Below are positions 22,130 to 40,178 of a stretch of 64,000 bases of DNA, piece after piece (position 1 is the first letter of the stretch; every line of letters starts with the position of its first letter). The translations under genes and the position numbers were made by a program. Below the pieces are notes generated by a model. That model was not told the origin of the DNA, did no database searches, and saw only the letters and a program-made list of their open reading frames with translations. The stretch comes from Escherichia coli (GTDB lineage Bacteria > Pseudomonadota > Gammaproteobacteria > Enterobacterales > Enterobacteriaceae), in NCBI RefSeq assembly GCF_036507355.1, contig NZ_AP027877.1; one strand, 5' to 3'.

Positions 22130-25003
22130 ATGACACAGACGTTAAGCCAGCTTGAAAATAGCGGCGCTTTTATTGAACGCCATATCGGACCGGACGCCGC
22201 GCAACAGCAAGAAATGCTGAATGCCGTTGGCGCGCAATCGTTAAACGCGCTGACCGGCCAGATTGTACCGAAAGATATTCAGCTTGCGACCCCGCCGCAG
22301 GTTGGCGCACCGGCGACCGAATACGCCGCGCTGGCGGAACTCAAGGCTATTGCCAGTCGCAATAAACGCTTCACGTCTTACATCGGCATGGGTTACACCG
22401 CCGTGCAGTTACCGCCGGTTATCCTGCGTAACATGCTGGAAAATCCGGGCTGGTATACCGCGTATACTCCGTATCAACCTGAAGTCTCGCAGGGCCGCCT
22501 TGAGGCACTGCTCAATTTCCAGCAGGTAACGCTGGATTTAACCGGGCTGGATATGGCCTCTGCTTCTCTTCTTGACGAAGCCACCGCTGCCGCCGAAGCA
22601 ATGGCGATGGCGAAACGCGTCAGCAAACTGAAAAATGCCAACCGCTTCTTCGTGGCTTCCGATGTGCATCCGCAAACGCTGGATGTGGTCCGTACTCGTG
22701 CCGAAACCTTTGGTTTTGAAGTGATTGTCGATGATGCGCAAAAAGTGCTCGACCATCAGGACGTCTTCGGCGTGCTGTTACAGCAGGTTGGCACTACCGG
22801 TGAAATTCACGACTACACTGCGCTTATCAGCGAACTGAAATCACGCAAAATTGTGGTCAGCGTTGCCGCTGATATTATGGCGCTGGTGCTGTTAACTGCG
22901 CCGGGTAAACAGGGCGCGGATATTGTTTTTGGTTCGGCGCAACGCTTTGGCGTACCGATGGGTTACGGTGGCCCACACGCGGCATTCTTTGCGGCGAAAG
23001 ACGAATACAAACGCTCAATGCCAGGCCGTATTATCGGTGTATCGAAAGATGCAGCTGGCAATACCGCGCTGCGCATGGCGATGCAGACTCGCGAGCAACA
23101 TATTCGTCGTGAGAAAGCGAACTCCAACATTTGTACTTCCCAGGTGCTGCTGGCAAACATCGCCAGCCTGTATGCCGTTTATCACGGCCCGATTGGCCTG
23201 AAACGTATCGCTAACCGCATTCACCGTCTGACCGATATCCTGGCGGCAGGCCTGCAACAAAAAGGTCTGAAGCTGCGCCATGCGCACTATTTCGACACTC
23301 TGTGTGTGGAAGTGGCCGACAAGGCGGGCGTACTGGCGCGTGCCGAAGCGGCTGAAATCAACCTGCGTAGCGATATCCTGAACGCGGTTGGGATCACCCT
23401 TGATGAAACCACCACGCGCGAAAACGTGATGCAGCTTTTCAGCGTACTACTGGGGGATAATCACGGGCTGGACATCGACACGCTGGACAAAGACGTGGCT
23501 CACGACAGCCGCTCTATCCAGCCTGCGATGCTGCGCGACGACGAAATCCTCACCCATCCGGTGTTTAATCGCTACCACAGCGAAACCGAAATGATGCGCT
23601 ATATGCACTCGCTGGAGCGTAAAGATCTGGCGCTGAATCAGGCGATGATCCCGCTGGGTTCCTGCACCATGAAACTGAACGCCGCCGCCGAGATGATCCC
23701 AATCACCTGGCCGGAATTTGCCGAACTGCATCCGTTCTGCCCGCCGGAGCAGGCCGAAGGTTATCAGCAGATGATTGCGCAGCTGGCTGACTGGCTGGTG
23801 AAACTGACCGGTTACGACGCCGTTTGTATGCAGCCGAACTCTGGCGCACAGGGCGAATACGCGGGCCTGTTGGCGATTCGTCATTATCATGAAAGCCGCA
23901 ACGAAGGGCATCGCGATATCTGCCTGATCCCGGCTTCTGCGCACGGCACTAACCCTGCTTCTGCACATATGGCAGGAATGCAGGTGGTGGTTGTGGCATG
24001 TGATAAAAACGGCAACATCGATCTGGCTGATCTGCGCGCGAAAGCGGAACAGGCGGGCGATAACCTCTCCTGTATCATGGTGACCTATCCTTCCACCCAC
24101 GGCGTGTATGAAGAAACGATCCGTGAAGTGTGTGAAGTCGTGCATCAGTTCGGCGGTCAGGTTTACCTTGATGGCGCGAACATGAACGCCCAGGTTGGCA
24201 TCACCTCGCCGGGCTTTATTGGTGCGGACGTTTCACACCTTAACCTACATAAAACTTTCTGCATTCCGCACGGCGGTGGTGGGCCGGGTATGGGACCGAT
24301 CGGTGTGAAAGCGCATCTGGCTCCGTTTGTACCGGGTCATAGCGTGGTGCAAATCGAAGGCATGTTAACCCGTCAGGGCGCGGTTTCTGCGGCACCGTTC
24401 GGTAGCGCCTCTATCCTGCCAATCAGCTGGATGTACATCCGCATGATGGGCGCAGAAGGGCTGAAAAAAGCAAGCCAGGTGGCAATCCTCAACGCCAACT
24501 ATATTGCCAGCCGCCTGCAGGATGCCTTCCCGGTGCTGTATACCGGTCGCGACGGTCGCGTGGCGCACGAATGTATTCTCGATATTCGCCCGCTGAAAGA
24601 AGAAACCGGCATCAGCGAGCTGGATATTGCCAAGCGCCTGATCGACTACGGTTTCCACGCGCCGACGATGTCGTTCCCGGTGGCGGGTACGCTGATGGTT
24701 GAACCGACTGAATCTGAAAGCAAAGTGGAACTGGATCGCTTTATCGACGCGATGCTGGCTATCCGCGCAGAAATTGACCAGGTGAAAGCCGGTGTCTGGC
24801 CGCTGGAAGATAACCCGCTGGTGAACGCGCCGCACATTCAGAGCGAACTGGTCGCCGAGTGGGCGCATCCGTACAGCCGTGAAGTTGCGGTATTCCCGGC
24901 AGGCGTGGCAGACAAATACTGGCCGACGGTGAAACGTCTGGATGATGTTTACGGCGACCGTAACCTGTTCTGCTCCTGCGTACCGATTAGCGAATACCAG
25001 TAA
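22130..25003 (+). CDS. gcvP: Glycine dehydrogenase (decarboxylating), P protein
   Basis: 957-aa ORF downstream of gcvT and gcvH. Confidence 0.95.
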
Positions 25004-25025
25004 TTCACTGATTCGACTATCTTCT

Positions 25026-25048
25026 AAAGGCGCTTCGGCGCCTTTTTA
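25026..25048 (+). terminator. gcvP intrinsic terminator
   Basis: Hairpin aaaggcgc-ttcg-gcgccttt followed by TTTT. Confidence 0.65.
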
Positions 25049-25166
25049 GCTTGTTAATAAAGTGCGCTTTGTGTGTCGGATGAAGCGTAAATATAAAATC
25101 CTGGAGTTCAATATATGACAGGAGCGCCAGGCCTGATGAGCGGGGCGCATCAGGCACAGCGGGTAA

Positions 25167-26627
<1,461 letters not shown>

Positions 26628-27789: not shown

Positions 27790-27852
27790 TTTGTAGGCCT
27801 GATAAGACGCGCCAGCGTCGCATCAGGCGATAAATGCCTGATGCGACACAGA
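27790..27852. repeat. REP-like palindromic element(s)
   Basis: gcctgataagacgcgccagcgtcgcatcaggc and gcctgatgcgacac palindromes between convergent yqfA and ygfZ. Confidence 0.6.
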
Positions 27853-36535: not shown

Positions 36536-36550
36536 GGTAATGACTCCAAC

Positions 36551-37054
36551 TTATTGATAGTGTTTTATGTTCAGATAATGCCCGATGACTTTGTCATGCA
36601 GCTCCACCGATTTTGAGAACGACAGCGACTTCCGTCCCAGCCGTGCCAGGTGCTGCCTCAGATTCAGGTTATGCCGCTCAATTCGCTGCGTATATCGCTT
36701 GCTGATTACGTGCAGCTTTCCCTTCAGGCGGGATTCATACAGCGGCCAGCCATCCGTCATCCATATCACCACGTCAAAGGGTGACAGCAGGCTCATAAGA
36801 CGCCCCAGCGTCGCCATCGTGCGTTCACCGAATACGTGCGCAACAACCGTCTTCCGGAGCCTGTCATACGCGTAAAACAGCCAGCGCTGGCGCGATTTAG
36901 CCCCGACATAGCCCCACTGTTCGTCCATTTCCGCGCAGACGATGACGTCACTGCCCGGCTGTATGCGCGAGGTTACCGACTGCGGCCTGAGTTTTTTAAG
37001 TGACGTAAAATCGTGTTGAGGCCAACGCCCATAATGCGGGCTGTTGCCCGGCAT
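36551..37054 (-). CDS. insB: IS1 InsB transposase segment
   Basis: 167-aa [40 protein letters not shown]. Confidence 0.9.
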
Positions 37055-37248
37055 CCAACGCCATTCATGGCCATATCAATGATTTTCTGGTGCGTACCGG
37101 GTTGAGAAGCGGTGTAAGTGAACTGCAGTTGCCATGTTTTACGGCAGTGAGAGCAGAGATAGCGCTGATGTCCGGCGGTGCTTTTGCCGTTACGCACCAC
37201 CCCGTCAGTAGCTGAACAGGAGGGACAGCTGATAGAAACAGAAGCCAC
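36973..37248 (-). CDS. insA: IS1 InsA
   Basis: 91-aa [43 protein letters not shown]. Confidence 0.9.
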
Positions 37249-37504
37249 TGGAGCACCTCAAAAACACCATCATACACTAAATCAGTAAGTTGGCAGCATC
37301 ACCCGCATCAGGATGGGAAATAGGGTAAAAAAGTAAGGAACTTCGATACCTCTACTACAGTGAATATTTTGCTGATGATACTTCCCTTTGCCAAATGAAA
37401 TTAACCTCTTTCTCTATTACCGCGTTTTTCCAGAAGCAAGAGATTGGGTATCAAGAGGCTGGCTGCTATGATATGGCGTCTTGTTTTTTAAGCGAGGAAA
37501 GATT

Positions 37505-38546: not shown

Positions 38547-40178
38547 ATGCTCAACTCAAAAACCTATCTTTATCAGCGCAATGGCGTCTTTTATATCCGC
38601 CTCAGGATGAAGTCCACAGATCGCCTGACCGTTTCACATCCTTCCCATAGCCGTTATAAAATAGCGTCAGTATCACTACGGACTAAGGATAGACGTACAG
38701 CTATGGCTTACTCACGGCAAATCAAGGCAGCACTTAGGGCAATCCATGCAGACAGACCCAACGCCTCCTATGAGGAAATGAGGGAACACCTGAGGGACAT
38801 CGCAGAGTGGGAGTTGTCTACAGGTCGTTCAGACCTCTTCGAGCCAGATATGAGAGATCTATACCGTGACCAGTATGGGGAAGTGGGAGAGAATCTTGTC
38901 CATGCTCTGGCAAGCGAGCCACTGACTATTGACCAGCATCGCTATATTAATGAGGCTCTTAATGTACTCAAGGCCTGCATGAAGCGCATTGAAGCGGGAG
39001 ATAGCCAGCCACTTATAGATTATATAGATGGATTTGATGCTGCTGCTGGGGCTAATGGCCAAGCCTCTGCAACTCTATCTGTTAGTGCTCCCCAAAAAAC
39101 AAGCATTACTGAAGGCAAACACTGCGTAACCGTTGCTTCTCTCTTTGAGCAGTACGAGCAGGAAAACGCCCAGAACTGGAAGCCAGCAACATTACGAGAA
39201 AACAAAGCTTCTCATGCTGCGTTAATCGAAGTTTTTGATTATCTGGGCCTCAATGCTGACGCCAATGTGTTAGCTCGTGCGGATATGCTTAGGGTTCGGG
39301 ATATCCTCCAGCAATTGCCGAAGAATCGTAAGCAGCGTTTCAAAGATGTTCCGTTGGTTGACCTGCTAGGTCGTGAGGATAAAACCGATTGTCTGGATAT
39401 TGTTACCATCAATAATAAATATCTCATTAAGATGGCGGCTGTTTTCAAGTGGGCCGTGCGTAATGACCTGATTAAAAAGAATATGACAGAAGGGCTAGAG
39501 CTTAAGGTTCCCCAGCGTAAAGCCTCTGAGGCGCGTAATGCTTTCTCTACGGAGCAGGTAGGACAACTACTGGCTGCCGCCCAAGTTTACTCACAGAGAC
39601 CTTCTGGTAAGCCGTATCATTATTATGTTACCGCCTTGGCTGCTATCACTGGGGCGAGACTCAATGAAATAGCCCAACTACAGGTCAAAGACGTCAGGAC
39701 CACTGAGGCGGGAACCGTTTATATTCATATCAATGAAGACGATAGTAGTCTACCCGGTAAGAGCATCAAGAACGCTCATAGTGACCGCTGTGTGCCTCTG
39801 GTCGATGGGGCCTATGGTTTTATATTGGCTGACTTTATGAGGTTGGTTGAGACCCGTAGAGGCGCTGATGGTGATGACGCTATGGTGTTCGATGGTCTTC
39901 GCCTCATGAAGAACGGTTACGGTGAGCAGGTGAGTAAATGGTTTAATCGGACGTTGTTGCCTAAAGTCCTCGCAGACCGTAGCGGCTTAGCGTTTCACTC
40001 GTTTAGACATACAGTTGCGACCCAGTTAAAACAACATGGGGTCGAGTTGGCGTATGCACAGGCGATCATGGGGCATAGTTCAGGGTCTATTACTTACGAC
40101 CGTTATGCTAAAGAGGTTGAGGTTGATAGACTGGTCAATGTGATGGCTGATGTTTATAAGGAGGTTGTGGCCCCTTAA
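38547..40178 (+). CDS. Tyrosine recombinase/integrase, unusually large (island 1)
   Basis: 543-aa ORF starting 135 bp after glyU; C-terminal HSFRHTVATQLKQ...AQAIMGHSSGSITYDRYAKE resembles catalytic R..H-x-x-R/Y box. Confidence 0.75.
   Translation: MLNSKTYLYQRNGVFYIRLRMKSTDRLTVSHPSHSRYKIASVSLRTKDRRTAMAYSRQIKAALRAIHADRPNASYEEMREHLRDIAEWELSTGRSDLFEPDMRDLYRDQYGEVGENLVHALASEPLTIDQHRYINEALNVLKACMKRIEAGDSQPLIDYIDGFDAAAGANGQASATLSVSAPQKTSITEGKHCVTVASLFEQYEQENAQNWKPATLRENKASHAALIEVFDYLGLNADANVLARADMLRVRDILQQLPKNRKQRFKDVPLVDLLGREDKTDCLDIVTINNKYLIKMAAVFKWAVRNDLIKKNMTEGLELKVPQRKASEARNAFSTEQVGQLLAAAQVYSQRPSGKPYHYYVTALAAITGARLNEIAQLQVKDVRTTEAGTVYIHINEDDSSLPGKSIKNAHSDRCVPLVDGAYGFILADFMRLVETRRGADGDDAMVFDGLRLMKNGYGEQVSKWFNRTLLPKVLADRSGLAFHSFRHTVATQLKQHGVELAYAQAIMGHSSGSITYDRYAKEVEVDRLVNVMADVYKEVVAP

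Follow-up and report, generated by a model that had tools for sequence, protein, structure and literature searches.

In Escherichia coli K-12, the genes gcvP, ygfF and bglA follow one another in that order, and the gcvP and bglA stop codons are 1066 bp apart. The middle gene, ygfF, is 744 nt long, has the same orientation as gcvP and bears the annotation SDR family oxidoreductase. Strain AML003_par (NZ_CP062246.1) served as the K-12 reference; its ygfF does not differ from the MG1655 gene. YgfF shows glucose 1-dehydrogenase activity in vitro and has been placed in the SDR63C subgroup (PMC10645960, PMC12506659), and the two G-rich repeats upstream of K-12 ygfF have been catalogued as hairpin-G-quadruplex elements between gcvP and ygfF (PMC5100583). 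At the other end of the interval, the bglA stop of K-12 has a REP some 12 nt away. Liang, Rudd and Deutscher (2015), as cited in PMC12306157, are reported to have found that REPs at most 15 nt from a stop codon stall ribosomes and reduce expression of the upstream gene.

The window analysed here, a stretch of 64,000 nucleotides of E. coli DNA, holds no gene between gcvP and bglA. Based on sequence comparison, and with a probability of roughly 75%, the interval is interpreted as the empty allele of an old presence/absence polymorphism between gcvP and bglA, in which the ygfF open reading frame (ORF) would have been deleted from the ancestral gene order.

Organization of the gcvP-bglA spacer

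The two genes converge on a spacer at 25004-25166, between the gcvP stop (25001-25003) and the complement of the bglA stop (25167-25169), as read from the sequence and the ORF list (Table 1). An earlier note on this DNA had counted only 163 bp between the two stops, which is exact, and had placed a terminator and a REP-like palindrome there; both hairpins were found, and the palindrome it quoted corresponds to the GCCTGATGAGC/GCGCATCAGGC arms. The exact GcvP protein (957 aa) is present in thousands of assemblies. The loci with this exact protein that were compared are 98.5-99.2% identical to the window in DNA, and none of them is identical.

Table 1. Features of the gcvP-bglA junction, in window coordinates
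Feature	Positions	Strand	Description	Evidence
gcvP	22130-25003	+	intact, 957 aa, last gene of gcvTHP	ORF list; annotation in matching genomes
First part of spacer			unremarkable sequence, 22 nt, before the gcvP hairpin	
Hairpin of gcvP	25026-25049	+	intrinsic-terminator-like, AAAGGCGC-TTCG-GCGCCTTT then TTAG	inverted-repeat search, folding
Short conserved stretch	25050-25075		CTTGTTAATAAAGTGCGCTTTGTGTG	alignments
Decayed REP	about 25076-25106		TCGGATGAAGCGTAAATATAAAATCCTGGAG	local alignment to Citrobacter werkmanii REP
AT-rich linker			between the decayed REP and the REP-like palindrome	
REP-like palindrome	25131-25155		GCCTGATGAGCGGGGCGCATCAGGC = GCCTGATGAGC GGG GCGCATCAGGC	inverted-repeat search, folding
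Last 11 nt of spacer			from palindrome end to bglA stop	
bglA	25167-26600	-	intact, 477 aa, 99.6% identity to K-12 BglA	tblastn; annotation in matching genomes

The first hairpin was located by inverted-repeat search, with arms AAAGGCGC at 25026-25033 and GCGCCTTT at 25038-25045 enclosing a TTCG loop and followed by TTAG. The region folds at -13.8 kcal/mol (z = -2.6 against shuffled controls), and the core stem GGCGC-UUCG-GCGCC followed by UUUUU is present and stable. A simple consensus terminator scan made no call; the likely reason is that part of the T run is taken up by A/T pairing at the foot of the stem. An identical hairpin lies 3' of gcvP in E. albertii, in Citrobacter sp. FP75 and, within E. 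coli, in K-12 and B2 strains. In Enterobacter sp. Bisph1, one stem pair shows a compensatory change from A-T to G-C. The most plausible reading of the hairpin at 25026-25045 is a terminator of gcvTHP, at which the operon's transcripts would end. The adjoining CTTGTTAATAAAGTGCGCTTTGTGTG stretch is partly common to the gcvP-proximal spacers of K-12, strain N96, E. albertii and the third E. coli allele described below. In E. coli N96, which carries ygfF, the terminator hairpin occurs twice, flanking a two-REP BIME upstream of ygfF (extracted locus 1268-1500), an arrangement that looks like a repeat insertion with duplication of the terminator.

The second hairpin, with arms GCCTGATGAGC (25131-25141) and GCGCATCAGGC (25145-25155) found by the same search, carries the REP-family ends GCC(G/T)GATG...CATC(C/A)GGC. 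The GCCTGATG..ATCAGGC pattern has a chance expectation of 0 in the window and recurs there only as the canonical REP at 27797-27828. Canonical REPs are about 35 nt long, with an asymmetric bulge and a ..CCTAC end. Since the element at 25131-25155 is short (25 nt), nearly symmetric and devoid of a CCTAC tail, the designation "REP-like" used by the earlier note is retained. On the bglA strand the hairpin folds at -21.6 kcal/mol (z = -3.95 against shuffled controls); the extended stem (about 25125-25161) starts 5 nt past the bglA stop and the core palindrome 11 nt past it. The stem is therefore within the 15-nt distance reported for REP action on translation, and it would form the structured 3' end of the bglA mRNA. 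In alleles that carry ygfF, the bglA-proximal REP occupies the position equivalent to 25131-25155. Because K-12 also has a REP here, the element near the bglA stop is retained in both alleles.

A more degenerate REP precedes the palindrome. Its alignment to the REP downstream of ygfF in Citrobacter werkmanii reaches a score of 26, where none of 300 shuffles exceeded 24, and it is collinear with the spacer of the third allele. It is read, from these alignments, as the probable first half of a degenerate BIME.

A spacer this strongly structured could in principle encode a small protein or small RNA of its own that replaces the function of ygfF, and the minus strand does have mechanical ORFs of 46 aa (25017-25157) and 48 aa (25046-25192). 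This explanation is highly improbable. The two subtypes of the geneless spacer in E. coli are about 85% identical and differ by 1-2-nt indels that break both ORFs, the terminator and REPs fully account for the structure, no promoter-like site was found in the spacer, and the only Rfam matches to the spacer, at 15.7 and 16.7 bits, fall far short of their gathering scores (37.6 and 45). There is no sign of a novel element at the gcvP-bglA junction.

Absence of ygfF and allele frequencies in E. coli

Alignment of the interval to K-12, the check proposed in the earlier note, found ygfF present in AML003_par, in agreement with its statement that K-12 has a short-chain dehydrogenase gene at this position; the geneless state is thus not shared by K-12. 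The window and K-12 align through the terminator to 25049, the left end of the spacer being identical, and again from the bglA stop at 25167. Between these points, about 117 bp of the window (25050-25166) stand against about 1020 bp of K-12. Because these 117 bp are without a K-12 counterpart, the change cannot be described as a clean excision from the K-12 sequence. No ORF of about 247 aa with adh_short domains lies immediately downstream of gcvP on the same strand in the window; K-12 YgfF itself matches PF13561 and PF00106. A tblastn search with K-12 YgfF gave no match at E <= 1e-3 in the 64 kb, and relaxed tblastn and blastn-short searches for a ygfF remnant in the spacer returned noise only (E >= 0.39).

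To place this difference in the species, 5426 complete E. coli genomes were surveyed. ygfF is present in 3057 of them. The window-type spacer (query 25046-25166) was found in 2372, with 2349 matching over at least 80% of its length, and a third allele with a different gene was found in 17. Since the three counts sum to essentially all genomes, these are mutually exclusive states of one locus. The window belongs to the empty state: the stops of this allele are about 163-165 bp apart, and the window spacer aligns end to end with those of ET350 and E2348/69. About 44% of complete E. coli genomes (about 2350/5426) share this state. The absence of ygfF is a common accessory-gene polymorphism, already visible in thousands of annotated public genomes.

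These numbers also bear on a possible error of assembly or sequencing behind the missing gene. The ygfF region is indeed garbled in one public genome, HH97. With about 2350 independent complete genomes sharing the empty spacer, 423 of them matching the window subtype at 95% identity or more, and with gcvP and bglA both intact, the probability of an artefact is negligible.

Two subtypes of the empty allele were distinguished. The window represents the rarer one (at least 95% identity in 423 genomes), and its nearest relatives over 1.2 kb are ET350 (99.7%) and O145:H28 strains (99.1%). The commoner subtype (1949 genomes) has a spacer of 165 bp, about 85% identical to that of the window, and includes E2348/69, Nissle 1917, UM146 and O157:H7. 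The flanks of the window are about 98% identical to ygfF-positive strains versus about 96% to the B2 empty strains, which indicates that allele and background are uncoupled. As the O145:H28 and O157:H7 subtypes also differ, the allele is not a clean lineage marker. The earlier note had taken the missing gene, together with other differences, to point to a lineage distinct from K-12. The conclusion itself holds, because the window differs here and its flanks are only 97-99% identical to K-12; as a marker of lineage, the empty allele is weak because it is so widespread (about 2350 of 5426 genomes).

ygfF is thus an accessory gene: about 44% of complete E. coli genomes lack it, and in some others it is decaying. 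The strain sequenced here would lack YgfF, a cytoplasmic SDR that nearly half of the species can dispense with. The in vitro glucose 1-dehydrogenase activity of YgfF was assigned only recently, and the frequent absence of the gene tempers any claim of a core metabolic role. For practical purposes, a simple PCR across the junction could type strains by product size (about 163 bp, 1.07 kb or 1.4 kb); the junction does not identify a lineage by itself.

Origin of the empty allele

To determine the direction of the change, species-representative genomes were scanned with the GcvP C-terminus as the query. Among the matches listed, ygfF begins 60-90 bp past the gcvP stop in Citrobacter sp. FP75, C. 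werkmanii, Superficieibacter electus, Enterobacter cloacae and two further Enterobacter species, Rahnella bruchi, Yersinia artesiana and Pantoea persica; bglA is the next gene after ygfF in several of these. In Citrobacter sp. FP75, ygfF directly follows the same terminator hairpin. Because the gcvP-ygfF arrangement is seen across these outgroup genera and is taken as ancestral in Enterobacterales, the absence of ygfF is most simply derived. Loss or decay of the gene is seen repeatedly at the locus. Enterobacter sp. Bisph1 keeps no more than a ygfF remnant with an internal deletion, and in Mangrovibacter bglA adjoins gcvP with no ygfF. Within E. coli, the gene is interrupted by a stop codon in WCHEC020032, falls into two ORFs in GCA_002949755.1 and starts with TTG in GN25. 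A separate deletion at the gcvP-bglA junction is found in WB61.

In the preferred reading, the ancestral enterobacterial order would be gcvP-terminator-ygfF-REP/BIME-bglA. The ygfF ORF would then have been lost, leaving the gcvTHP terminator and a degenerate REP/BIME between two intact convergent genes, and the likely cause would be recombination or slippage among the REP-type repeats that crowd the spacer. These repeats are variable on both sides of the gene. Upstream of ygfF, K-12 has BoxC/HPGQ repeats, strain 90-9280 a shorter version, and N96 a BIME flanked by the duplicated terminator; downstream, E. coli has one REP and C. werkmanii a two-REP BIME.

Several short similarities connect the window spacer to ygfF-bearing loci. 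GCGCTTTG together with the decayed REP matches the bases right after the C. werkmanii ygfF stop, with a score of 26 that exceeds all 300 shuffles. The REP and CACAGCGGGTAA beside bglA align with the REP and CACATCAGATAA that follow ygfF in GN25, at a score of 20 versus a shuffle maximum of 21, i.e. near noise. TAATAAAGTGCGCTTTGT is similar to sequence upstream of ygfF in N96 and K-12 and to the corresponding sequence in E. albertii. These similarities, short and partly near noise, fit a deletion of ygfF that would have left the terminator and a degenerate BIME. Since the spacer holds no coding remnant of ygfF, the deletion is deduced by comparison rather than seen directly. No intermediate allele combining ygfF with window-type repeats was found among the 5426 complete E. 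coli genomes.

A model of a single REP-to-REP deletion was tried and set aside: it meets three partly conflicting sets of short similarities that cannot be reconciled, and exact breakpoints are not claimed. Two partial matches were also rejected. That of HH97, considered as an intermediate, is a garbled assembly of a ygfF region of intact length (76% identity, homopolymer errors), and the partial spacer match in H140 is an unrelated REP near ybiT. Separately, the region upstream of K-12 ygfF (extracted locus 2240-2262) and the E. albertii/third-allele spacer (2670-2700) share the 11-nt CAGTTTGTTAG and GAATTAA(A)TT; the match could be a relic of one ancestral spacer or a coincidence.

The third allele was found by searching with the 324 bp 3' of gcvP from the E. 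albertii type strain. It consists of gcvP, a 455-bp AT-rich spacer, an 894-nt gene and bglA, and its 17 carriers include E. coli 2017.11.01CC (extracted locus 3004-4399) and E7-1N7. The gene product (297 aa), labelled a 'transporter', has a signal peptide and matches PF13557, the MetA-pathway outer-membrane family (E = 1.5e-12); the allele is hereafter the OMP allele. The E. albertii type strain has the OMP-allele type of spacer (extracted locus 2464-2787). Over about 150-190 nt, the window spacer runs collinear with the sequence separating gcvP from the OMP gene and with E. albertii, so that the immediate progenitor of the empty allele could be the OMP allele and not a ygfF allele.

An origin of the empty allele by deletion of the OMP gene, or of the OMP allele by insertion beside bglA into an empty one, is nevertheless doubtful. 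The alignment with the OMP allele is base for base over the first ~190 nt, running through the terminator, the decayed REP and TTCAATATAT to the REP position, and the terminator arm of the OMP allele, GGCGGGTAAC, contains the GCGGGTAA that lies beside the bglA stop. Deletions do remove the OMP gene, as in WB61, where the gcvP 3' end and most of the gene are gone. Against this, the OMP allele is rare (17/5426), an OMP gene beside gcvP was found in no other genus sampled, and from the REP to the bglA stop the sequence is closer to ygfF-positive GN25 than to the OMP allele.

The polarity itself could also be reversed within the genus. E2348/69, Nissle, UM146 and O157:H7, which belong to early-branching phylogroups (E2348/69, Nissle and O157:H7 being B2 or E strains), carry the empty allele. 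The E. albertii type strain has an empty/OMP-type spacer, with no ygfF in the 324 bp past gcvP, where the contig ends. With B2/E strains and apparently E. albertii devoid of ygfF, the empty state may be older within Escherichia: it would be ancestral for E. coli and E. albertii, ygfF having been lost before the species arose and having re-entered A/B1-type lineages, K-12 among them, when homologous recombination in gcvP and bglA brought it back. The diversity of E. coli ygfF alleles (90-100% identity, three upstream repeat contents) and the closer match of the window flanks to ygfF-positive strains than to B2 empty strains are in line with such exchange. We consider this scenario unlikely, however. 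The E. albertii contig, from the only other Escherichia among the matches listed, stops before the next gene; no donor lineage has been identified; and repeated, independent loss is directly observed at the locus. The identity of YgfF between K-12 and Citrobacter (82-83%) is below that of the GcvP C-terminus (about 90%), BglA (about 95%) and YqfB (86-88%), and is judged still compatible with the vertical descent of a less constrained gene.

A broader reading, possible and advanced here only tentatively, treats the gcvP-bglA junction as an old hotspot in Escherichia with three alleles (ygfF, a MetA-type outer-membrane gene, empty). The alleles would have arisen by REP/BIME/BoxC turnover, the empty/OMP spacer would be common to E. 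coli and E. albertii, and recombination would have shuffled the alleles among phylogroups. If true, this would hint at long-term maintenance over simple decay.

The wider window and comparison with known loci

Other parts of the window also depart from K-12. Between mscS and argO, the window has a 2.2-kb insertion (76-2292) that is lacking in K-12 and ET350, with a DctP-family (PF03480) solute-binding ORF (140-1216, minus strand) and a 309-aa ORF without a Pfam match (1238-2167, minus strand). An IS1 copy (36536-37303, 768 bp, InsA and InsB ORFs) directly follows lysS. At this site K-12 has 33.5 kb, from idi through uacT, ygfT, guaD, xdhD, ygfK and ygeW-arcC to xdhABC; this whole purine/selenium-linked cluster is missing from the window, and the sequence resumes at actS (ygeR). 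From 38413 to 64000, an island adjoins a tRNA-Gly gene. A tyrosine integrase of 543 aa (38547-40178) opens the island. Next come stretches with matches to ars genes and to a DUF2326 gene, and after these the ETT2 type III secretion genes, ygeH among others. Coverage of the island stays below 80% in every complete E. coli genome, the best matches being about 96.6% identical; the integrase protein is widespread.

Over the 24 kb from 13000 to 37000, identity to K-12 varies from 96.8% to 99.8% per kb, and the best matches in complete E. coli RefSeq genomes reach only 98.0-98.5%. ET350, the closest spacer match, differs from the window in gene content. The low and uneven identity over the 24 kb and the IS1-linked deletion suggest a lineage that is poorly sampled in, or excluded from, the collection, Shigella being one candidate.

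The junction itself serves as an example of a spacer crowded with repeats (REP, BIME, BoxC/HPGQ) in which gene content turns over. In the window it has the same convergent flanks as the K-12 bglA-ygfF-gcvP locus (b2901-b2903), the same gcvP hairpin and, likewise, a REP within about 12 nt of the bglA stop. It differs in that K-12 has 1066 bp with paired G-rich BoxC/HPGQ repeats and the 247-aa SDR gene ygfF, whereas the window has 163 bp and no gene. The OMP allele is collinear with the window spacer for the first ~190 nt past gcvP; its 455-bp AT-rich spacer and 894-nt PF13557 gene are both missing from the window.

As in the REP/BIME elements of enterobacteria, the palindrome is extragenic and imperfect, has GCCTGATG...CATCAGGC ends, and lies between convergent genes near a second, degenerate copy; unlike them, it measures 25 nt rather than the 32 nt at 27797-27828, and its partner copy is badly decayed. 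Among the close counterparts are the other empty E. coli alleles. The majority subtype of B2 strains and O157:H7 differs in its length (165 bp versus 163 bp) and is about 85% identical in the spacer, but all of these alleles share with the window the terminator, the decayed REP, the REP and the geneless state.
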